In this document: in pieces, positions 2,982 to 28,227 of the stretch | How the letters are laid out: each line of letters begins with the position of its first letter | Numbering within the stretch: the first letter of the stretch is position 1 | IMG/VR virus record: IMGVR_UViG_3300029861_000010 | Reading direction: 5' to 3' (one strand) | Origin: a virus | DNA length: 36,545 nucleotides | The notes under the pieces: generated by a model | Databases searched by the model: none | Seen by the model: only the letters and a program-made list of their open reading frames with translations | What the model was told of the DNA's origin: nothing | Made by a program: the position numbers and the translations under genes

Positions 2982-3327
2982 GTATATTGAGCGGCAGGCT
3001 GCCATTGACCTATTTTATCCGGTAGACCCGGAGAATGATGGATCAGACGGATGCACCGTGGTTTATAAGACAGAGAATTACACTTCCGATGAGATCGAGG
3101 CCGTGATTTCTGGCCTGCCTGCCGCCGATGTAGCCCCGGTACGGCACGGAAAGATTATAGAGACTATCAAAGATGGCAAAATGAATCGAGTGTTCTCATG
3201 CTGTGGACATGATTTTACGGAATTAACATGCTGGTATATGCCAAAATACTGCCCCAACTGCGGCGCTCCCATAGCGGACGAGGCCGTGGAGATGGTGCTA
3301 AAAAGAATGGAGGAAATTTACAAATGA
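2974..3327 (+). CDS. Hypothetical protein with C-terminal zinc-ribbon (CCGH...CPNCG)
   Basis: ATG at 2974 (MAEYIERQAAIDL) follows a GGGAGGAG RBS. Confidence 0.65.
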   Translation: MAEYIERQAAIDLFYPVDPENDGSDGCTVVYKTENYTSDEIEAVISGLPAADVAPVRHGKIIETIKDGKMNRVFSCCGHDFTELTCWYMPKYCPNCGAPIADEAVEMVLKRMEEIYK

Positions 3328-3596
3328 ACCTGAACGATACCGTAAAGATGATGAACAGCGCCAACTATAAGGAACGCTTTAAGGCGGAATACTGGCAGAC
3401 CAAAATCCGGTATGAAAAGCTCCACCGTATGACGGTGAAGTACGAAGCCGGAACTTTAGATTTTGAACCGGATTGTGAACTTAGTCTACTGCTGGAACAA
3501 AAAAAGTATATGGGCCTTTACCTGAACCGCCTGGAAGTTCGGGCAGAAGTCGAAAGGATTGATTTGGAGGCGCTGAAAGATGGCAAGGGCGATTGA
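3324..3596 (+). CDS. Hypothetical phage protein, resembles the crAss001_48-related family
   Basis: Recalled family pattern: ERFKAEYWQTKIRYEKLHRM...DFEPDCELSLLLEQKKYMGLYLNRLEVRAEVE. The ATG at 3324 overlaps the previous stop. Confidence 0.55.
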   Translation: MNLNDTVKMMNSANYKERFKAEYWQTKIRYEKLHRMTVKYEAGTLDFEPDCELSLLLEQKKYMGLYLNRLEVRAEVERIDLEALKDGKGD

Positions 3597-4229: not shown

Positions 4230-4687
4230 TACATCAGGTACTGGTGATCCAGCTACCCCGGGGAGACAGGGGGGAGGCGGATCTGACAGCATACCGGGAC
4301 TATGTGGTGGCGTCGCTGGCCCAGGGGGTGCTGGTCCTGGGCTCCGGAACCACCTGGGCGGTGGAGACCGTCCCAAGCCTGGGCGGGGTTCAGATCCAGC
4401 GGGACGCTGGCATCCTCCGGGCCCACAGCGTCCAGGGGCCCAAGGCGGATCCAAAGCCGGACCGGCCAAACCCGTGGCGGGAGAAGAAGGAGACCCTGGA
4501 ACGGCTCCAGCAGTACCGTCAGGCGGGCGGCCTGGGCTGTCTGGAGGCGGTGTCCAGCCGGTGCGGCGGAGATCTCACGGCGGACAAGCTCCGGGGCGTC
4601 CTCACCGGAGCGGAAAAACTGCCCATTGAGCAGTGGCGGCTCATCCGCCGGGCCCTGGACCAGCTGGAGGAGGGCGGAGATGAGTAA
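4196..4687 (+). CDS. Hypothetical protein (163 aa); the C-terminal half may be helical and DNA-binding
   Basis: ORF with AGGAGG 9 nt upstream. Its stop overlaps the start of the next gene. No family recognised. Confidence 0.55.
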   Translation: MASAEICSCELIHQVLVIQLPRGDRGEADLTAYRDYVVASLAQGVLVLGSGTTWAVETVPSLGGVQIQRDAGILRAHSVQGPKADPKPDRPNPWREKKETLERLQQYRQAGGLGCLEAVSSRCGGDLTADKLRGVLTGAEKLPIEQWRLIRRALDQLEEGGDE

Positions 4688-5513
4688 GGCAATCAAGCAC
4701 ATCAAGGCCGGACTGCTCCACATTGAGGTTATTGGGACGATCCCGGACCGTCCACCCGGCAGGCAGGGGCGGGCGGCCCGGAGCCAGGCCACCTCTCCGG
4801 CCCAGCAGTTTTACAATGACAAGTGCTCCTGGCGGGAACTAGAGCTGGTGGTGGCGGCCAACTTCGGCCGCCGGGCTTTGGTCCTGACCCATACCTATGA
4901 TGATGACCACCTGCCGGAGAGCAAGGACGCGGCCAATCGGTACTTTGCACGGTTTATCCGCAGGTTCCGGGCGGCCCGGAAAAAACGGGGCGCGGAGCTG
5001 CAATATATCTACGTGACCGAGGGATACCACGAGAAGCGGGCGAACGACTGGCTGGTGGAGGACGGGACCCTGGAGGACCGGAGGATCCACCACCATGTGG
5101 TGATCAATGCCACGGATGTGGATGATCTGGAGGAGATCCGGAGTCTGTGGCAGGGCGGCGGATACATCCGGGCGGAGCCGCTGGACGTCCACTATTATCG
5201 GGAGCTTGCCAAGTATATGACCAAGGAGGCCCGGGAGTTTGGCCGGCCAAAGCCCGGTGAGCGGACCTGGCGGTGCTCGCGGAATCTCCGTCGGCCGGAG
5301 ATTGAGTACATCGAGATCCCAAGCGACAGCGTTACCCTGACGCCGCCATACGGAGCGGTGGACTACGAGCCCTTCTGCGAGCGCAATCCATACGGATACG
5401 GGGACTGCATCGGGGCGCGTTATCTTATGTTTCCTGTGAGGGAGCAACCCGAATATACCTATACACAGCCTAAGCAGCGGAAACAGCCGCCACCTAATAA
5501 TTTTTTCCCTTGA
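4680..5513 (+). CDS. HUH-superfamily rolling-circle replication initiator-like protein (Rep)
   Basis: Three ordered motifs are present: VLTHTYDD (motif 1), RIHHHVVIN (HUH) and YRELAKYMTKE (catalytic Tyr motif). The ATG at 4680 overlaps the previous stop. The upstream in-frame extension from 4302 overlaps another gene. Confidence 0.65.
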   Translation: MSKAIKHIKAGLLHIEVIGTIPDRPPGRQGRAARSQATSPAQQFYNDKCSWRELELVVAANFGRRALVLTHTYDDDHLPESKDAANRYFARFIRRFRAARKKRGAELQYIYVTEGYHEKRANDWLVEDGTLEDRRIHHHVVINATDVDDLEEIRSLWQGGGYIRAEPLDVHYYRELAKYMTKEAREFGRPKPGERTWRCSRNLRRPEIEYIEIPSDSVTLTPPYGAVDYEPFCERNPYGYGDCIGARYLMFPVREQPEYTYTQPKQRKQPPPNNFFP

Positions 5514-5561
5514 AACCAGTCTTAATAATTCGTCTATGATGGAGAAAAGGAGGAAAAGACC

Positions 5562-5771
5562 TTGAAGTTTGGACCGAAACCTGATAGAATATTCCCCGTG
5601 AAAGGCGGATATGTGCTGTGCCCGAAGTGTCTGGAGGCTGGTCTTCGAAATAAACTCCAGGAAGCACCGCCGGACATGAAAGCCATCCGGCTACGGCTGT
5701 ACTGCCGACAGTGCAAAAGCCGGTACATCGTGAATATCGCAGAGGGCCAGTGTCGAGAGGACCAGAGCTGA
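5562..5771 (+). CDS. Cysteine-rich KTR-type small zinc-ribbon protein
   Basis: TTG start 8 nt after AAAGGAGGAAAAG. The layout LCPKC...LRLYCRQCKSRYIVNI resembles the Cys-rich KTR domain family. Confidence 0.55.
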   Translation: MKFGPKPDRIFPVKGGYVLCPKCLEAGLRNKLQEAPPDMKAIRLRLYCRQCKSRYIVNIAEGQCREDQS

Positions 5772-5820
5772 TGATCTACCCAGTGGGTGGGATCGTTGGC
5801 TCTGGCCTTTTTTGTTTTCC
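5759..5820 (+). terminator. Putative intrinsic terminator at the early/late boundary
   Basis: GGaCCAGAGC (5759-5768) pairs with GCTCTGGCC (5799-5807) and is followed by TTTTTTGTTTT. The loop is long and partly self-paired. Confidence 0.4.
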
Positions 5821-5876
5821 TGGAGGTGATAGCCCAGGGACAGAGACCAGACGGCCAGCGGGAGGGAGGGATCAAA

Positions 5877-6347
5877 ATGGCCTGGGATGGCTACAAGAGC
5901 AAGCGGTGGGCCGCCAAGCGCAAAGAAATCCTGCGGCGTGATCGATACCAGTGCCAGCAGTGCCGGAGGTATGGTCTGGCGGTGGATGCCACGGTGGTAC
6001 ACCATGCGCATCCGGTGGAGGATTATCCCGAGCTCGCCTGGTGCGAGTGGAATCTGGTCAGCCTGTGCGCTGGCTGCCACAATGCCATGCACGACCGTGA
6101 GACTGGAGCTCTCACCGACCTGGGGATGTCCTGGCGGCGCAGGGTATCCCCCCCCTCTCTCGGCCCCCACCGGGAGCCCCCCGGAAGACCGGGGGGCAGG
6201 ACTCTTTCCGACGGCGAGAAAAACGGCGGAGGGGGTTCGGGCGTGCAGGAATTATCACGCGGGCAGGACGCGCCCGCAAACGACGCGGCCGCGCGGAGCG
6301 GCGGTGGATCACAGTACAGGAGGAAGCTATGGGCCGAGAGGCGATGA
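5877..6347 (+). CDS. HNH endonuclease (terminase-associated)
   Basis: Contains ILRRDRYQCQQC...VHHAHP...NLVSLCAGCHNAMH and lies directly upstream of the terminase. The 3' end is uncertain because all three frames are open across 6101-6347. Confidence 0.8.
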   Translation: MAWDGYKSKRWAAKRKEILRRDRYQCQQCRRYGLAVDATVVHHAHPVEDYPELAWCEWNLVSLCAGCHNAMHDRETGALTDLGMSWRRRVSPPSLGPHREPPGRPGGRTLSDGEKNGGGGSGVQELSRGQDAPANDAAARSGGGSQYRRKLWAERR

Positions 6348-8458
6348 TCCGGGCGGACATGGAATCTGTCGGGACCTACAACACGATCTTTGAGCCGACT
6401 ATCAAGCAGCTGGCTAAACTGGAGCGGGAACTTTCCAAGGCGGAAAAAAACTGGCGGGCTGCCGGCGGCCAGATGGTAGCAGAGCTGGTGAACAAGACCG
6501 GCGGGAAGTACACAGCCAAGGACCCTAACTACGCTGTGGTGGACCAGCTCCGTAAGGACATCCAGGCGTTACGCAACCAGCTTGGATTGACTCCTACCAG
6601 CCTGAAGCGGGCCCGTCAAAAGGCTGAGGCCATGTCAAGCGGACAGCAGAGCCCTTTGGAGGACCTGTTGGAGACAGCTCACAACTACGCTCTGGATCAC
6701 GCGGCCGCCTATCAGGCCGAGGTGGACGCCTATGTGGATGGTTGCCTCTCTGGTCGGATACGGGTATGCCCGGAGATTGTCCAGGCCTGTGAGCGCTATC
6801 ACCGAGACCTTCAGAATCCAAAATGGGAGTTTCGCCCGGACCCGGCCAATGAGATCATCGCTATCATCGAGACCACAATCTGCCACCAGCAGGGGGAGTT
6901 TTTGGATGCTACACCACTCCGTGGGACACCCTTCCTCCTCATTCCGTATCACAAGTTTATTGTGTACAACGTAATGGGTTTTTACCTGGCCGGCAGCCAG
7001 GAGCGCCGCTTTAAGGAGGCGCTGGACTTTATTCCTCGAAAGAATATCAAGACTACCTTTGCGGCGGCGCTGGCCTGGGCCCTGGCCCTATATGAACGGC
7101 GCTCCGGGTCCAAGGTATACGAGGTGGGCGGGGCCCTAAAGCAGGCCCTGGAGGGATTTGACTTTTTGCGGTATAACCTGCGTCGCCTCAAACTGACGGT
7201 GGACGATGACCCGGTGAACGGTCTGCGGATTATCAACAACAACATGGAGCGGAGCATCACTGGAGACATCGGTGAGGACGGCTTTATCAGCATCCATGCC
7301 TTAGCCGCCAGCCCGGATAAGCAGGACAGCTTTAATTGCAATATTGTCATCGCCGACGAGCTGCATACCTACAAAAGCCCAAAGCAGTATCAGGTCCTGA
7401 AAGATGCAACCAAGGCATATACCAACAAGCTGATCATCGGAATCAGCTCCGGCGGCGACCTGGCTACCGGATTCTGTGCTAAACGTGTGGAATATTGCCG
7501 GAAAATCCTAAATGGGACCGTCTCCGGGCCAGAGGCCGATAGTATTTTTGTTTTCATCGCAGCAGCACCCCGGCAAGAAAATGGGGATGTGGACTATACG
7601 AATCCGGAGGTCCTAGAATGTTGCAACCCGGGTTGGGGGCAGAGTATTCGTCCTCAGGAGATGATCAATGACGCCATGCAGGCCAAAGAGGACCCGCAGA
7701 TGCGGCCGGAATTTTTACAGAAGTCCCTCAATGTGTTTATTGCCAGCCTGCGGGCTTGGTTCAACATAGAAGAGTTTCGCGCCAGCGACAGCAAGTACAA
7801 CTGGAGCTTGGCTGAGTTGTCCAGGCTCCCGGTGAAATGGTACGGCGGCTCTGATCTTTCCAAACTCCACGACTTGACAGCGGCAGCACTGTTCGGCCAC
7901 TACAACGGGGTAGACATTATCATCCCACATTGCTGGTTCCCTTTGGCGGCTGCAATGGTCAAGGCTCACGAGGACCAAATCCCCCTGTTTGGCTGGAAGG
8001 ATGATGGCTGGCTGGATATGCCCAATGACAAAGTGACCAACCACAGCGACGTGGTCAAGTGGTATAAGGACCTGCGGGACCAGGGCTTTAAGATCCGACG
8101 GGTAGGCCACGACCGCAAATTCTGTCGAGAATATTTTGTGGAGATGAAACAGGCCCACTTCCGGATCAAGGATCAACCCCAGCTGTTTACTCGAAAGAAC
8201 GAGGGTTTCCGATACCTTGAGGCCAGCGCTAAGCGCGGAACTCTGTATTATCTCCACGCAGAACCCCTCGAGTATTGCGTGCAAAACGTGCGGGGAATCG
8301 AAAAAGCGGATGACATGGTCATGTATGATAAGCTCCAGCCCAATTTACGCATTGACATCTTCGACGCAGCAGTATTTGCCTGCTGTGCCTACTTGGAGGA
8401 CCTGGAGCAGGTCCGGAAAGAAAATAACTGGTTTGGGGAGGGACCCAAGGATGAGTAA
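6329..8458 (+). CDS. Terminase: P27-like small-subunit segment fused in frame to a Terminase_1-type large subunit (709 aa)
   Basis: The N-terminal ~105 aa (...LRNQLGLTPTSLKRARQKAE...PLEDLL) look like the C-terminal two-thirds of a P27-family TerS. The remainder (RIRVCPEIVQACERYHRDL, FIPRKNIKTT, IVIADELH) is TerL-like. There is no stop codon between the two parts. Confidence 0.85.
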   Translation: MGREAMIRADMESVGTYNTIFEPTIKQLAKLERELSKAEKNWRAAGGQMVAELVNKTGGKYTAKDPNYAVVDQLRKDIQALRNQLGLTPTSLKRARQKAEAMSSGQQSPLEDLLETAHNYALDHAAAYQAEVDAYVDGCLSGRIRVCPEIVQACERYHRDLQNPKWEFRPDPANEIIAIIETTICHQQGEFLDATPLRGTPFLLIPYHKFIVYNVMGFYLAGSQERRFKEALDFIPRKNIKTTFAAALAWALALYERRSGSKVYEVGGALKQALEGFDFLRYNLRRLKLTVDDDPVNGLRIINNNMERSITGDIGEDGFISIHALAASPDKQDSFNCNIVIADELHTYKSPKQYQVLKDATKAYTNKLIIGISSGGDLATGFCAKRVEYCRKILNGTVSGPEADSIFVFIAAAPRQENGDVDYTNPEVLECCNPGWGQSIRPQEMINDAMQAKEDPQMRPEFLQKSLNVFIASLRAWFNIEEFRASDSKYNWSLAELSRLPVKWYGGSDLSKLHDLTAAALFGHYNGVDIIIPHCWFPLAAAMVKAHEDQIPLFGWKDDGWLDMPNDKVTNHSDVVKWYKDLRDQGFKIRRVGHDRKFCREYFVEMKQAHFRIKDQPQLFTRKNEGFRYLEASAKRGTLYYLHAEPLEYCVQNVRGIEKADDMVMYDKLQPNLRIDIFDAAVFACCAYLEDLEQVRKENNWFGEGPKDE

Positions 8459-22574: not shown

Positions 22575-24104
22575 ATGCTGATCTGCATTGATGCGGGTCA
22601 TTACATCGGGACCCCGGGGAAGCGGTGCCTGAAGGGCATCGACCCCGGGGAGACCCGGGAATGGACCCTGAACAGCCGGGTGGCGGACAAGCTGGAGGCC
22701 ATCCTGGCGGGGTACAGCTGCCAGACCATGCGGGTGGACGACGTGACCGGGCAAAGGGACGTGACCCTGTCCCAGCGGGTGGCGGCGGCCAACCGGGCCC
22801 GGGCAGACGTATATCTGTCCATCCACCACAATGCCGGGATCAACGGCGGCTCCGGCGGCGGCATCGTGGCCTATGTGGCCCCCAGCCATCAGACGCAGAG
22901 CGAGGTGGTGCGGGACGCGGTGTACCGCTATACCGTGGCGGCTACCGGCCTGCGGGGTAACCGGGCGCAGCCGCTGGCGGAGCAGAGCCTGTATGTGCTC
23001 AACTACACCACTATGCCCGCCACCCTGATCGAGCTGGGGTTTATGGACAGCCTGACAGACACCCCCATCATCCTGACGGAGGAGTTTGCGGCCAAGGCGG
23101 CGGCAGGGCTGGCGGCGGCGCTGGTGGAGGTGTATGACCTCCAGGCCAAGGACAGCGGGCAGGTCCTGATGACTGCGGTGCAGGCAGAGGACCTGACGGT
23201 GGAGCTGGTGGACAAGCCCAAGGGTGAGTGCGGAGACAACTGCGCCAACGCGGGGTACTTTGCCAACTACTCCGAGGCGGGCGAGCCGTTCACGCTGCCG
23301 GTGGGCCATCTGGTGGGCGACTACAAGGCCGCGGGTAAGTGGACGCGGCACTACTGCCAGGAGCGCGGGCGGTTCCGGGGGGACAAGTTTACCTTTGACT
23401 CCGGCGGGTGGTCCTATGCCAACCCCCTGCACGGCAAGGCGGTCTCCACCCTGCTGATCTCCGGCGGCAAGGCTCGGGTGGAGGAGATCCGGACGGTGCC
23501 GGATGGGACGGACTACGCCGTGTCCGGTATCCCCGTGCTGCGGGGCGGGAAAGCCTGCACCACCGCCCAGGCCAAGGGGCAGGGCTGGGACACCTCCCCG
23601 CTGCGGGCCACCTGGCACACGCTGGTGGGCCTCAAGGGAGACGGCATGGTGTACGTCATGGGCTGGCAGTCCAGGACCGCCAACCTGCTGGACAGCGGCG
23701 AGGCCGCCCGGGTGTTCCGGGGGCTTGGATTCTCTGACGTGCTCAAGCTGGACGGCGGCGGGAGCTACTACCAGAGCCGGGACGGGGCGGTCTCCAAGAC
23801 CGCGGAAAACCGGCGGATCAACAGCGTACTGCGCTGGACGGTGAGAGAGGAGGAGCCGGAGTTGACGGAGGACAGAGTGCGGCAGATCGTGCGGGAGGAG
23901 CTGGCCGCTCAGGAGGCGAAGCTGGCCAACGCGCCGGCGGACAGCTGGGCAGTGCCTTACATCCGGCAGGCCGTGGAGGCCAGGATCCTCACCGGCGTGG
24001 ATGACGGCCAGGGCGGCGTGACCATCGCCAGGCCCAGGGCCCACACCACCAGGCAGGAGCTGGCCACCATGGGCGTGGCCATCCTCAAGGCGGCAAGAGA
24101 ATGA
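22575..24104 (+). CDS. Endolysin: N-acetylmuramoyl-L-alanine amidase (Amidase_3) plus phosphodiester-glycosidase-like central domain plus SLH-like C-terminal motif
   Basis: MLICIDAGH...YLSIHHNAG...LIELGFMD is an Amidase_3 pattern. ...VLKLDGGGSYY resembles NAGPA/DUF2233. The C-terminus is SWAVPYIRQAVEARILTGVDDG...TRQELATM. Confidence 0.85.
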   Translation: MLICIDAGHYIGTPGKRCLKGIDPGETREWTLNSRVADKLEAILAGYSCQTMRVDDVTGQRDVTLSQRVAAANRARADVYLSIHHNAGINGGSGGGIVAYVAPSHQTQSEVVRDAVYRYTVAATGLRGNRAQPLAEQSLYVLNYTTMPATLIELGFMDSLTDTPIILTEEFAAKAAAGLAAALVEVYDLQAKDSGQVLMTAVQAEDLTVELVDKPKGECGDNCANAGYFANYSEAGEPFTLPVGHLVGDYKAAGKWTRHYCQERGRFRGDKFTFDSGGWSYANPLHGKAVSTLLISGGKARVEEIRTVPDGTDYAVSGIPVLRGGKACTTAQAKGQGWDTSPLRATWHTLVGLKGDGMVYVMGWQSRTANLLDSGEAARVFRGLGFSDVLKLDGGGSYYQSRDGAVSKTAENRRINSVLRWTVREEEPELTEDRVRQIVREELAAQEAKLANAPADSWAVPYIRQAVEARILTGVDDGQGGVTIARPRAHTTRQELATMGVAILKAARE

Positions 24105-24105
24105 G

Positions 24106-24135
24106 AGAGGGGGAGCGCGTGGGCGCTCCCCCTCT
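24106..24135. terminator. GC-rich hairpin between convergent genes (bidirectional terminator candidate)
   Basis: AGAGGGGGAGCGC-GTGG-GCGCTCCCCCTCT forms a perfect 13-bp stem. It sits between the endolysin stop and the stop of the minus-strand gene. Confidence 0.7.
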
Positions 24136-24139
24136 TGAA

Positions 24140-24625
24140 TTATCCAATTGACAGTACATTCCGGAGTTTCGCCATGCTCTCCTTGTTTGGGACGACCTTG
24201 CCGGACTCCCAGCGGGAGATCAGAGCCTGGTCCACTCCGATGGCCTCGGCCAGCTGTCCCTGGGTCATCTTCTGGGCCCTTCGGGCGGCGGCGATGTCAA
24301 CCTTTGCGGTGGGGAGAGGACGCTTCCCTTTCCCGACAAAATACCCCAGTTGCCAAGAGCCTTGGATTTCGAGCGGCTGGTATTTTTCAGAGCTGCCCTC
24401 CATTGGAGCAACAATGCTGTCGATCTCAAAGAGCGCCTCCCCGACCTGCTGCTCCAGATCGCCTTTCAAAATTCCGATGCGGTGGGCGTCCGAAATAACG
24501 CGGGCGTTGGCTGTATACGGGCGCGGTGCCGCAAGGACGACGTCGCCGCCTATATCTTCTGGGAATGCCTCCGCAGATAATCTACCAAATACCCAGCCAA
24601 ATACATAAGCTTCTCTGTTTGTCAT
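24140..24625 (-). CDS. Two-domain protein: unknown N-terminal domain plus C-terminal XRE-type HTH
   Basis: 161 aa with RBS GAGGAG. The C-terminal MTQGQLAEAIGVDQALISRWESGKVVPNKESMAKL is an HTH_3 signature. The first ~100 aa are unrecognised. Confidence 0.75.
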   Translation of the reverse strand: MTNREAYVFGWVFGRLSAEAFPEDIGGDVVLAAPRPYTANARVISDAHRIGILKGDLEQQVGEALFEIDSIVAPMEGSSEKYQPLEIQGSWQLGYFVGKGKRPLPTAKVDIAAARRAQKMTQGQLAEAIGVDQALISRWESGKVVPNKESMAKLRNVLSIG

Positions 24626-24649
24626 GTCAGGATCTCCTCTTTCTCGTCA

Positions 24650-25078
24650 TCAGGGCAGCAGGGCCTCGTCATTGCGATAGATAGGCGCCTCATCTGGATG
24701 AGCCTCATTCCAGGCGCGCATCAGAGCCATATCGGTTAGATTTTCAGCGCCATGCAGCCACGCAACGCTAAGGAACATCCCGCCGGGGACCGCAGACAGC
24801 ATACACAGTGCTGCGACCATCTGCTCCCGGCTGACTCCGGACATCCACAGATTCAGGGAAGCTTTTTTGAGCTCGTTCCAGGCGTCCGAGATAACCGCAG
24901 CTTCCGGGGTGCGGCCACACAACTGATTCATCATGGCCTGGCCAGGCAGGGCGTTATCGGTATAGACTCCGTTGTCCCATGCAGCCTGATACTTAGCGGT
25001 GATTTCATCGGCCACTGTACCAAGGGCAACATAGACGTTGCTTCCGTACTTCGCTAGGATTTCGTTTTCGATATTCAT
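24650..25078 (-). CDS. Hypothetical protein (142 aa), first gene of an orphan accessory operon
   Basis: RBS AAGGGGGAG. No recognisable family. It has a hydrophobic stretch VAALCMLSAVPGGMFLSVAWL. Confidence 0.7.
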   Translation of the reverse strand: MNIENEILAKYGSNVYVALGTVADEITAKYQAAWDNGVYTDNALPGQAMMNQLCGRTPEAAVISDAWNELKKASLNLWMSGVSREQMVAALCMLSAVPGGMFLSVAWLHGAENLTDMALMRAWNEAHPDEAPIYRNDEALLP

Positions 25079-25106
25079 GATTCTCCCCCTTGCTCTTTAT
25101 GCTCTC

Positions 25107-25134
25107 ATTATAGCATAAAATATGTATTTGTCAA
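25107..25134 (-). promoter_or_regulatory. Near-consensus sigma-70/sigma-A promoter for the 25078..24140 operon
   Basis: The minus strand reads TTGACA (25134-25129), a 16-nt spacer ending in TGc, then TATAAT (25112-25107). Confidence 0.7.
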
Positions 25135-25141
25135 TACATAT
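25120..25141. promoter_or_regulatory. Perfect 9+9 bp inverted repeat (operator candidate) overlapping the -35 box
   Basis: ATATGTATT-tgtc-AATACATAT. Confidence 0.65.
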
Positions 25142-25228
25142 TTTGAGGAGGTGGGAAGAAAAATTTTGTGAGGGGGAACATCGTCTGGCGGGGGTGTTTG
25201 GGAGCAAAAACAATCAGTAATACAAGAG

Positions 25229-25258
25229 GGAGCAGCTGGTAAGCTGCTCCTTCTATTT
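25229..25258. terminator. Hairpin with flanking T-rich tract
   Basis: GGAGCAGC-TGGTAA-GCTGCTCC is followed by TTCTATTTAT on the + strand. It could also stop leftward int transcription. Confidence 0.45.
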
Positions 25259-25264
25259 ATATCA

Positions 25265-25292
25265 TTTTGCACAATGTTTTGGCGTTAGAGAC
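25265..25292 (+). repeat. 28-bp direct repeat copy 1 (attP arm-site candidate)
   Basis: TTTTGCACAATGTTTTGGCGTTAGAGAC matches 25471-25498 at 26 of 28 positions. Confidence 0.8.
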
Positions 25293-25470: not shown

Positions 25471-25498
25471 TTTTGCACAATGTTTTACCGTTAGAGAC
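25471..25498 (+). repeat. 28-bp direct repeat copy 2, abutting the integrase stop codon
   Basis: TTTTGCACAATGTTTTACCGTTAGAGAC. Confidence 0.8.
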
Positions 25499-27041: not shown

Positions 27042-27791
27042 TTACTCTAACCCTGATTGAGCTTTGGCCGTGACTTGCCCACCCTGGAAGGTAACATTGG
27101 CATTGGCCCCTAGAGTTCCCTCCCCTTCCCAGGCATAAATGGCAGTATAGTATTCATCTCCAAGGCCCATATCCACCTCAGACAGCAGTTCCCCTCGAGA
27201 GCCGACCAGGTCAAATACCTCCTGGTAACTCATACCGGTTTGGATCGCTTCAAATTCCTCTAAGCTGATAGTGGACGGGTTGTTCTGAGATCCGGTATTT
27301 TCCCCAAACATACTATATGTTTGCTTCCCGTTGATGTAGGTTGCGTAAATAACGCTCCCCTCCTCGTCTGCCTCTACGGAAAGTATAGCATACCCATCTG
27401 GATAATTTTGTGCCAAGACTTGCGCGTCAGCGGCCCAAGCCTCCTGATAAGCTTCCCATTCTGCCGGAGCTGCTCCGGCGGATCCTTGGACGGAAGAGAC
27501 AGCAGCAGTCACATCTGGGTCAAATGCGGATACCGACAATTTGGTATCTGTTTGCTCCACACTGATTTGCTCCGGAGCAAACGAGGAGATCAGGCCGGCA
27601 ACCTCCTGAGACAACACATCCTTATCATTGGCAGTTGACATTGACGCTGAGCCAGATGAACCCGAAGCACTTGTAGCGGCATCGGGCGTCTTAGGGTCGG
27701 TTGAGGTCTCTCCTCCTCCAGAAGCAGAGCAACCAGAGGCCAGCAGGAGCATCACAGCGCAGAGCGCAAAACCCCGAACATACAGTTTCAT
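27042..27791 (-). CDS. Prophage lipoprotein with C-terminal DUF3862/BLIP-like domain (superinfection-exclusion candidate)
   Basis: Signal peptide plus lipobox (MKLYVRGFALCAVMLLLASGC). The C-terminus EEFEAIQTGMSYQEVFDLVG...WEGEG...VTFQGGQVTAKAQSGL fits that domain pattern. Confidence 0.75.
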   Translation of the reverse strand: MKLYVRGFALCAVMLLLASGCSASGGGETSTDPKTPDAATSASGSSGSASMSTANDKDVLSQEVAGLISSFAPEQISVEQTDTKLSVSAFDPDVTAAVSSVQGSAGAAPAEWEAYQEAWAADAQVLAQNYPDGYAILSVEADEEGSVIYATYINGKQTYSMFGENTGSQNNPSTISLEEFEAIQTGMSYQEVFDLVGSRGELLSEVDMGLGDEYYTAIYAWEGEGTLGANANVTFQGGQVTAKAQSGLE

Positions 27792-27792
27792 G

Positions 27793-28227
27793 TCAGTTCC
27801 CCCTTTGATGAGTATCAAAATATCCGTGTTTGTACCAAAAAATAGCTTTGCATAAAAAAGCTTCTGTTACTCCAAAATATTCGGCCAACTCCCAAGGCTC
27901 ACGACAGCCTTGGAGAATAGCTTGCCTCAACTCATCCTCCGGGATGAGTTTTTTTATTGCCCATTTGTTGGCCCGGTTTTCATATTTCTGACGGACGTCC
28001 CGGGCGGCATAGCGGTTATAAAATGCCCCGGTCTCACAGTGGCCCAGTTCATGGGCCAGCTTGACCGTCTCATCTGCTACTGTTGGCATCCGCCAGGGAT
28101 TCATAGCAATGGCGCAGGAGCCGTCGGACAGGGGCATAGACAGGGATTCGGCGGCTTCCAGATCGAACCAGACAACCTGTGTGCCGTGATCCTCGGCCAG
28201 GCTGTATAAATCCAGAAGGTTAATCAT
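27793..28227 (-). CDS. ImmA/IrrE-family zinc metallopeptidase
   Basis: HELGH motif (KLAHELGHCETGAF). ATGATTAA overlap with the upstream XRE gene. Confidence 0.85.
   Translation of the reverse strand: MINLLDLYSLAEDHGTQVVWFDLEAAESLSMPLSDGSCAIAMNPWRMPTVADETVKLAHELGHCETGAFYNRYAARDVRQKYENRANKWAIKKLIPEDELRQAILQGCREPWELAEYFGVTEAFLCKAIFWYKHGYFDTHQRGN

Follow-up and report, generated by a model that had tools for sequence, protein, structure and literature searches.

The anti-CRISPR (acr) operons described to date follow a recognizable plan. Diverse small acr genes lie 5′ of a conserved helix-turn-helix (HTH) gene, and one or two inverted repeats sit in a consensus core promoter which is repressed by the Aca protein (PMC9410906; PMC13551039). 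This repression follows an initial burst from the strong acr promoter (PMC9410906; PMC13551039; PMC12658196). In Listeria prophages, the two-domain HTH protein AcrIIA1 likewise binds its own acr promoter at a palindrome (bioRxiv 10.1101/787200). Here, we describe an operon of two minus-strand genes, which we call gene 1 and gene 2, in the DNA of IMG/VR virus record IMGVR_UViG_3300029861_000010. The whole stretch analysed, 36,545 nt in length, is referred to below as the window, and coordinates are positions within it. Our work suggests that the two genes form an acr-aca-type cargo operon, autonomous and autoregulated, in which swappable inhibitor cargo is combined with an Aca-like autorepressor, a reading to which we assign a probability of roughly 0.5.

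A preliminary description of the same DNA had proposed that genes 1 and 2 form a new toxin-antitoxin or abortive-infection pair. Comparison with related loci did not bear this out, as gene 2, its N-terminal domain included, is 60-100% identical while the gene upstream of it has been swapped among at least 11 families.

A fixed promoter and regulator around exchangeable cargo

The promoter of the operon consists of TTGACA (25134-25129), a 16-nt spacer with TG at its end and TATAAT (25112-25107). The preliminary description had called it near-perfect, and it indeed agrees with the consensus at 12 of 12 positions. It is the only perfect TTGACA-N16-18-TATAAT in the window, and none of 100 dinucleotide-preserving shuffles produced one. 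The inverted repeat reported over the -35 box is also real, although the 9+9 bp first given for it was too short: the repeat is a perfect 12+12, AAAATATGTATT-N4-AATACATATTTT, whose core we designate putative operator O1. A second palindrome, overlooked at the time and designated putative operator O2, has the same 6-N8-6 geometry and covers the -10 box and the predicted start of transcription (Table 1). The centres of O1 and O2 are 23 bp apart. Their geometry is in the range known for dimers of XRE-type HTH proteins, HipB with TATCC-N8-GGATA being an example. In the window, the pattern TATGYW-N8-WRCATA occurs at O1 and O2 only, even with one mismatch allowed (0.25 expected by chance). The idea that gene 2 might regulate other phage promoters was rejected, as the window contains no further operator sites.

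We compared 188 loci encoding gene 2 homologues, drawn from metagenome, viral and genome collections. Wherever a homologue of at least 52% identity came with enough upstream sequence, the same dual-operator promoter was found 235-884 nt 5′ of it. Among 25 distinct promoter blocks of related loci, with the consensus TATGTATTGACAAtnnCATATTTTATGnTATAATnaantCATaAA, the four TATG/CATA half-sites are essentially invariant and the flanks vary. The distal CATA of O2 is kept although it lies outside the promoter hexamers and is surrounded by variable positions. The genes between promoter and gene 2, by contrast, are not conserved. They belong to at least 11 unrelated families of 61-175 aa, occur singly or paired, and appear in many combinations; a 99-aa family, for example, was found combined with the gene 1, 78-91-aa, 87-aa and 145-aa families. 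Gene 2 was never found as the only gene behind the promoter, and even the shortest spacing still has room for a 61-aa gene.

The boundaries of this exchange are sharp. Cargo of unrelated families is found next to 100%-identical gene 2 proteins (the 61-aa family at one locus, the 99-aa and 78-aa families at another), and a 92%-identical gene 2 protein has a third kind of cargo in front of it. Two phages with identical gene 2 proteins have in common a 95-bp promoter/operator block (97% identity), which ends just past O2. Homology restarts exactly at the gene 2 ATG, with 98.7% identity, and the cargo in between, together with its own 5′ untranslated region (UTR), is unrelated. The module also changes place, being found at the attachment (att) end in the window and between early genes and terminase at loci L014 and L020, but it is always self-contained. 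Genes 1 and 2 are thus not co-inherited as a toxin and its cognate antitoxin would be: identical gene 2 occurs with unrelated cargo, and gene 1 relatives occur with other partners, although distant relatives of both are paired again at L108-L110 (see below).

The cargo proteins share general properties only. Nearly all are acidic, with isoelectric points (pI) of 4.1-5.7, and mean hydropathy is negative in all of them. Neither a signal peptide nor a convincing membrane helix was detected in any, and library scans revealed no toxin or defence domain. No informative match was obtained for the cargo in Pfam, PHROGs or the PDB (two cargo proteins were searched against PDB chains), and the 99-aa family has no match in plasmids or phages.

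Locus L026, whose gene 2 homologue is 44% identical, keeps the same layout with other palindromes, CGCCAAATTTGGCG and TACGCCA-ATAA-TGGCGTA, the latter covering the -10 box. Operator and regulator therefore change together. This suggests binding of the gene 2 protein to the promoter of its own operon, and is the best evidence that sequence comparison currently offers on this point. Autoregulation by the gene 2 protein would be the natural expectation from the promoter, the palindromes and the terminal HTH gene.

Two sequence features of the cargo slot were noticed in passing. Cargo led by the 94-aa or the 99-aa family brings its own 5′ UTR, with a short GGG(N4-6)CCC hairpin abutting an AGGAGG ribosome-binding site (L016 ~4420-4458, L026 ~3380-3414, L057 ~2915-2935, L111 ~3130-3167). 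The hairpin is kept behind different regulators and is absent from the 5′ UTR of the window. By analogy with the RNA motifs of Aca2 (PMC13551039), it may be a translational control element. In addition, a motif G(T/S)(E/P)KQI(A/S)(W/Y)(A/G) is N-terminal in the cargo proteins of 104 aa and 94 aa and recurs inside 168-aa and 400-aa proteins near related loci (L009 5181-5495, L016 4459-4743, L025 1762-2268, L115 3861-5063).

Table 1. Features of the operon in the window, and cargo families found between promoter and gene 2 in related loci.
Feature	Position	Strand	Length	Remarks
Sigma-70-type promoter	25107..25134	-		12/12 match; unique in window; kept in all related loci
Operator O1 (putative)	25121..25140			TATGTA-N8-TACATA, core of the 12+12 repeat at 25117-25144; overlaps -35
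Operator O2 (putative)	25098..25117			TATGCT-N8-AGCATA; overlaps -10 and predicted transcription start
Gene 1, cargo	24650..25078	-	142 aa	pI 4.45; soluble, mainly helical; candidate inhibitor (anti-defence) protein
Gene 2, putative Aca-like autorepressor	24140..24625	-	161 aa	N-terminal four-helix domain, residues ~1-105; XRE HTH, residues 111-158
GC-rich hairpin	24097..24144			Common to the convergent endolysin gene and gene 2; read as bidirectional terminator; overlaps gene 2 stop codon
13-bp-stem hairpin	25225..25254			5′ of promoter; would block transcription from the att/host side or the integrase gene
Cargo family			61 aa	Commonest, 88 loci
Cargo family			78-91 aa	Acidic
Cargo family			97-119 aa	Basic
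Cargo families			94 aa and 104 aa	Common start MKGTEKQI.WA
Cargo families			98 aa	Two families
Cargo families			87 aa, 145 aa, 175 aa	
Cargo family			142 aa in window	Gene 1 family

Genomic setting and the two proteins

Annotation of open reading frames (ORFs) and domains indicates that the window is a complete temperate siphovirus-type genome. Terminase, portal, capsid and tail genes, a holin and an Amidase_3 endolysin are followed by the two-gene operon, past which lie the attachment region, a tyrosine integrase, a lipoprotein, an ImmA-like peptidase, a CI-like HTH repressor and replication genes. The preliminary description was accurate as to the anatomy of the locus. Both minus-strand ORFs are found where it had placed them (Table 1), between the convergent endolysin gene, with which gene 2 has a hairpin in common, and the attP/integrase region. 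They do form an independent accessory transcription unit in the lysis-to-attP region, with its own consensus promoter under palindromes and an HTH gene in last position. Both genes have good ribosome-binding sites (GGGGGAG and AGGAG, respectively), and no terminator is present in the 24-nt gap between them. As hairpins flank the operon at 24097-24144 and 25225-25254, it is insulated on both sides.

In metagenomic contigs, the phage is found in two states, either with the integrase 5′ of the operon, as in the window, or integrated, in which case it adjoins a host aldehyde-dehydrogenase gene. Identity to the integrated copies stops at ~25384, the phage/host junction. One end of the prophage is therefore occupied by the operon, with no other transcription unit between it and the junction ~245 bp away, and transcription runs inward. 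Two 28-nt direct repeats that are 93% identical (TTTTGCACAATGTTTTGGCGTTAGAGAC; 25265-25292 and 25471-25498) lie ~90 bp either side of this junction and are probably arm-type integrase binding sites around the attP core. Phages carrying the operon are very common in human gut metagenomes; 377 contigs carry the exact sequence of gene 1 and 298 that of gene 2. Relatives occur in metagenome-assembled genomes of Clostridia assigned to Agathobaculum, Pseudoflavonifractor and ‘Clostridiales’. The proteins encoded by genes 1 and 2 are ‘hypothetical’ in all sources, and GenBank phages lack both.

Gene 2 was said to combine an N-terminal domain of ~100 aa from no known family with a C-terminal XRE HTH, and family scans agree. 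The HTH matches Pfam HTH_3 (residues 111-158, E = 8e-12), and the N-terminal ~105 residues have no match in Pfam, PHROGs, PADLOC or NCBIfam. The family comprises more than 200 full-length homologous clusters with 60-100% identity. The family has 30 invariant residues, of which 18 fall within residues 1-98, and among them are two small-residue helix motifs, GW.FGR and WQ.GY..G. The structural model, with a predicted local distance difference test score (pLDDT) of 90, shows four helices and a short hairpin followed by the HTH; the N-terminal domain thus modelled probably provides dimerization. Fold and sequence searches against the PDB matched the HTH only (P22 c2, HipB, HigA2, SinR and restriction-modification controller proteins). 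The same segment accounts for the matches in PADLOC (RmrA, CapH and similar models), for weak matches to MqsA-family models, and for a tblastn match to GenBank phages with 41% coverage.

Gene 1 had been described as belonging to no recognizable family, which is confirmed by the lack of any match in Pfam, PHROGs, PADLOC and NCBIfam, the anti-phage defence models of PADLOC included. The label ‘orphan’ given to the operon is only partly apt. Gene 2 has its many homologous clusters, and gene 1 belongs to a small family (24 representative clusters at E ≤ 1e-3 in an exhaustive HMMER search, 31-45% identical and 130-150 aa long; 43 clusters in a profile search). An AlphaFold model of gene 1 built with 22 family members (pLDDT 91; predicted template-modelling score 0.83) is globular and mainly helical with a short beta-hairpin. 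It has no neighbour in the PDB (best E = 3.7, template-modelling score, TM, < 0.35), and a search of the BFVD returned only three uncharacterized gut-phage proteins with TM ~0.7. A profile search of the family against PDB chains gave nothing informative, and tblastn against GenBank phages gave a marginal match only. The claim that gene 1 is unlike any known toxin therefore stands, insofar as neither library scans nor comparison of the model with the PDB revealed a toxin family or fold.

The hydrophobic, helix-like stretch noted earlier in gene 1 is present at residues 87-105 (Kyte-Doolittle 19-residue maximum 1.92), but it is not a membrane helix. It contains Pro-Gly-Gly, is buried within the confidently modelled globular domain and is not hydrophobic in relatives, and we therefore rejected the idea of gene 1 as a membrane protein. 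We also rejected a homology between gene 1 and the N-terminal domain of gene 2, an idea raised by weak BLAST matches, since hhalign gave it a probability of 0.2%. A 34-kb contig (P0004) carries gene 1 in a frameshifted form of 101 aa, so that gene 1 can be lost while the phage contig remains. Many 104-aa members of the gene 1 90%-identity cluster are on the same long contigs as the 142-aa form; these may be alternative gene 1 calls, or a clustering quirk with a neighbouring 104-aa cargo gene.

Relatives of gene 1 were also encountered in other company, although single-protein scans for such loci were little productive (one locus from one scan, none from another). At L108-L110, a relative of gene 1 with 26% identity precedes a 165-aa, full-length relative of gene 2 which is ~25% identical (profile E = 2.5e-12). 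At L111, a member of the 99-aa family and a gene 1 relative are followed by a 79-aa gene, by an unrelated HTH protein of 93 aa and by a Zn-ribbon protein, behind a TTGACA-17-TATAAT promoter with two inverted repeats of its own. At L113, only a Zn-ribbon protein follows the gene 1 relative. At L115, the 99-aa family and a gene 1 relative precede a 143-aa protein, which we take to be of the ribbon-helix-helix (RHH) type from its C-terminal resemblance to a 131-aa L108 protein with a weak RHH_1 match. With relatives beside HTH, RHH-type and Zn-ribbon proteins, gene 1 is mobile cargo with several kinds of DNA-binding partner.

The neighbourhoods of some of these loci deserve mention. At L108-L110, the region 4600-6100, 3′ of the distant gene 1/gene 2-like pair and ahead of the lysis genes, carries variable small genes and has the appearance of an extended accessory island. 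The products of these genes include a very acidic protein of 135 aa, RHH proteins and a Bro-N/ANT antirepressor. In L017 (1-2856), a prophage with a gene 2 homologue is integrated right beside a type I-C cas operon (Cas5d, Cas3). In L111/L112 (1-3049), type IV CRISPR-Cas genes (Csf1, Csf3), together with a PAPS-reductase-like gene, lie divergent to the locus of a distant gene 1 relative. These CRISPR-Cas neighbours are suggestive of an anti-CRISPR link, but could be a coincidence.

Two further ORFs of the window were noted. A 258-aa ORF (27042-27818, minus strand; 249 aa in related contigs) located between the integrase and the ImmA-like peptidase resembles a lipoprotein at its N-terminus (LLLASGCSAS). 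Precomputed Pfam annotation of related contigs gives a BLIP domain for it, whereas our scan at E ≤ 1e-5 found nothing. It is a second candidate moron, perhaps a surface or exclusion protein. In addition, a single 709-aa ORF (6329-8458, plus strand) carries a small-terminase domain (Terminase_4, residues 9-99) together with large-terminase ATPase and nuclease domains, which are encoded by two separate genes in the related phage L014. It is either a TerS-TerL fusion or an artefact of the longest-ORF choice.

Possible function and alternative explanations

The arrangement described above can be accounted for as follows. The gene 2 protein, as an XRE-HTH dimer, would bind O1 and O2 and thereby occlude RNA polymerase. 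The operon would fire strongly when phage DNA enters a repressor-free cell, or on induction, after which expression would be brought down to a low and steady level, in the lysogen too. The slot between promoter and regulator would accept interchangeable small cytoplasmic proteins, gene 1 in the case of the window phage, and this cargo would most likely bind and inhibit a component of host defence, either as an anti-CRISPR or as another kind of anti-defence protein. That the locus is a modular autoregulated cassette appears to us highly probable, the binding and repression being what we infer. The anti-defence role of the cargo, proposed by analogy, has something close to an even chance. It is with more reserve, and at somewhat less than even odds, that we propose gene 2 as a new family of Aca-type autorepressors (new N-terminal domain, C-terminal HTH, dual TATG-N12-CATA operators), with gene 1 and at least 10 other cargo families as new inhibitors.

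The locus resembles acr-aca operons in having a DNA-binding gene in last position (the HTH_3 gene 2, 24 nt past gene 1), conserved inverted repeats inside the core promoter (O1 on the -35 and O2 on the -10 box), and one regulator family associated with diverse, unrelated small upstream genes (at least 11 families across the 188 loci). Several observations nevertheless weigh against an acr-aca assignment. No cargo matches a known Acr or anti-defence protein in Pfam, PHROGs, PADLOC, NCBIfam or the PDB, a search conducted with general family libraries and the PDB and not with a dedicated Acr database. Gene 2 resembles known proteins through its generic XRE HTH only, and among the PDB matches listed for it there are generic XRE HTH proteins only and no Aca or AcrIIA1 entry. 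Its strongly conserved N-terminal domain of ~105 aa may do more than dimerize, and the renewed pairing of gene 1 and gene 2 relatives at ~25% identity (L108-L110) hints at a specific functional link, the only observation to do so. The attP-adjacent site and a promoter independent of phage factors fit lysogeny-expressed morons of other function too. Finally, no evidence from host CRISPR or self-targeting emerged, no search for spacers or self-targeting having been made.

The last but one of these points leads to an alternative in which the same architecture is that of a lysogenic-conversion or moron cassette, whose cargo would serve the lysogen through intracellular phage exclusion, host physiology or lysis-lysogeny circuits. 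The attP-side end is the classic moron position in temperate Firmicutes phages, and no other transcription unit separates the operon from the att junction. Its promoter can work without phage factors, expression in the lysogen would be kept steady by an autorepressor, and adjoining accessory regions of related phages carry antirepressor (Bro-N/ANT) and RHH genes. Yet the module is located among early genes, not at the att end, in some phages, and its cargo is cytoplasmic, without signal peptide or convincing membrane helix, unlike most known superinfection-exclusion proteins. PADLOC detects no enzymatic or defence-system domain in the cargo, and inhibitors engaged in an arms race more typically show such fast turnover behind a fixed promoter of the burst type. 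We consider such a cassette a serious alternative, though less probable than not. Another explanation would make gene 2 itself the main effector, bifunctional in the manner of AcrIIA1, with an N-terminal domain that inhibits or senses a host factor, an autoregulatory HTH and accessory upstream genes. Fusions of an Acr domain to an HTH are known from AcrIIA1, AcrIF24 and AcrIIA15 (PMC9410906; 10.1101/787200), and by this analogy it is possible that the N-terminal domain of gene 2 is an inhibitor or a sensor. This domain has no PDB relatives and is as conserved as the HTH, judging by the distribution of invariant residues (18 of 30 in residues 1-98), and gene 2 is the sole constant gene of the module. 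A four-helix domain with small-residue helix motifs would rather look like a dimerization domain, however, and gene 2 never stands alone behind the promoter, which makes this explanation improbable in our eyes.

The toxin-antitoxin hypothesis, in which gene 1 would be a new type II toxin or abortive-infection effector and gene 2 an antitoxin that neutralizes it through the N-terminal domain and represses through the HTH, as in MqsRA or HigBA, seems to us the least probable of all. Gene order and the C-terminal HTH are like those of MqsA and HigA2, the HTH of gene 2 has weak MqsA-family matches and counts HigA2 and HipB among its fold matches, and the operators have a geometry like that of HipB. 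A distant gene 1 relative is again found with a gene 2 relative, and the operon is bicistronic, with a palindromic operator and predicted autoregulation. This last layout does not discriminate, because acr-aca operons have it as well. What decides the matter is that 100%-identical regulators flank unrelated cargo, which is incompatible with cognate neutralization by protein-protein binding. One conserved ‘antitoxin’ would have to serve at least 11 unrelated cargo families, at times two per operon; gene 1 is acidic, without toxin fold, toxin family or PADLOC match, and its relatives occur without any gene 2-like partner.

Phages of the dominant gut Clostridia have, to our knowledge, yielded few anti-defence proteins, most of them found through guilt by association with a conserved regulator. 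If the acr-aca reading is correct, the gene 2 family and its 43-bp promoter/operator signature would provide an anchor for anti-defence genes in these phages. A simple search would then already have yielded at least 11 candidate families of inhibitors, including gene 1, which matches no solved structure. If the anti-defence role proves wrong, the operon would be an ordinary autoregulated moron and not a new toxin-antitoxin system. The locus is also a clean natural example of a modular expression cassette, with a fixed promoter/operator, swappable cargo that brings its own 5′ UTR and a fixed putative repressor, and with recombination boundaries resolved to the base.

Comparison with known systems

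The association of one conserved domain with many unrelated partner genes is reminiscent of PanA (Panacea), the hyperpromiscuous antitoxin domain. The partners of PanA are recognizable toxins, and PanA sequences diverge along with them, whereas identical gene 2 regulators are found with different partners, none of which is toxin-like. With MqsRA and HigBA2, the operon has in common two genes, the second with an N-terminal partner domain and a C-terminal XRE HTH, and palindromes on the -35 and -10 boxes; it differs from them in that the upstream gene is not kept with the regulator, has no toxin fold, is acidic and is sometimes accompanied by a second cargo gene. The controller (C) proteins of restriction-modification systems, small dimeric XRE-HTH proteins, bind to a pair of adjacent palindromic operators at the promoter of their own gene, and C.BclI, C.Esp1396I and C.AhdI are among the top fold matches for the HTH domain of gene 2. 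In contrast to gene 2, C proteins are usually encoded by the first gene, both activate and repress, and have no extra N-terminal domain, and the operon described here contains no restriction or modification genes.

The AcrIIA1 loci of Listeria prophages are closer in kind, being accessory loci of Firmicutes prophages with a two-domain HTH marker and variable small neighbours (10.1101/787200). AcrIIA1 binds the palindrome in its own promoter, and the gene 2 protein is predicted to do the same. The HTH is N-terminal in AcrIIA1 and C-terminal in gene 2, and there is no sequence similarity past the HTH. AcrIIA1 is also not necessarily last in its locus, and its second domain has a demonstrated anti-Cas9 role.

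The closest parallel is with the acr-aca operons (Aca1-Aca14). No cargo of gene 2 loci is a known Acr or anti-defence protein, and gene 2 is larger than most Aca proteins, with a domain of ~105 aa ahead of its C-terminal HTH. The two systems nevertheless share a strong consensus promoter with inverted repeats, diverse small and often acidic upstream proteins, and a DNA-binding gene as the constant 3′ anchor. Both are located in prophages or mobile elements, and in both the cargo is common to different regulators, RHH types included (PMC9410906; PMC13551039; PMC12658196). No description of the gene 2 family was found in the literature on anti-CRISPR loci of Faecalibacterium or gut Clostridia prophages. 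The kind of system is thus already known, while its regulator family, the operators of this family and all of the cargo families appear to be new.

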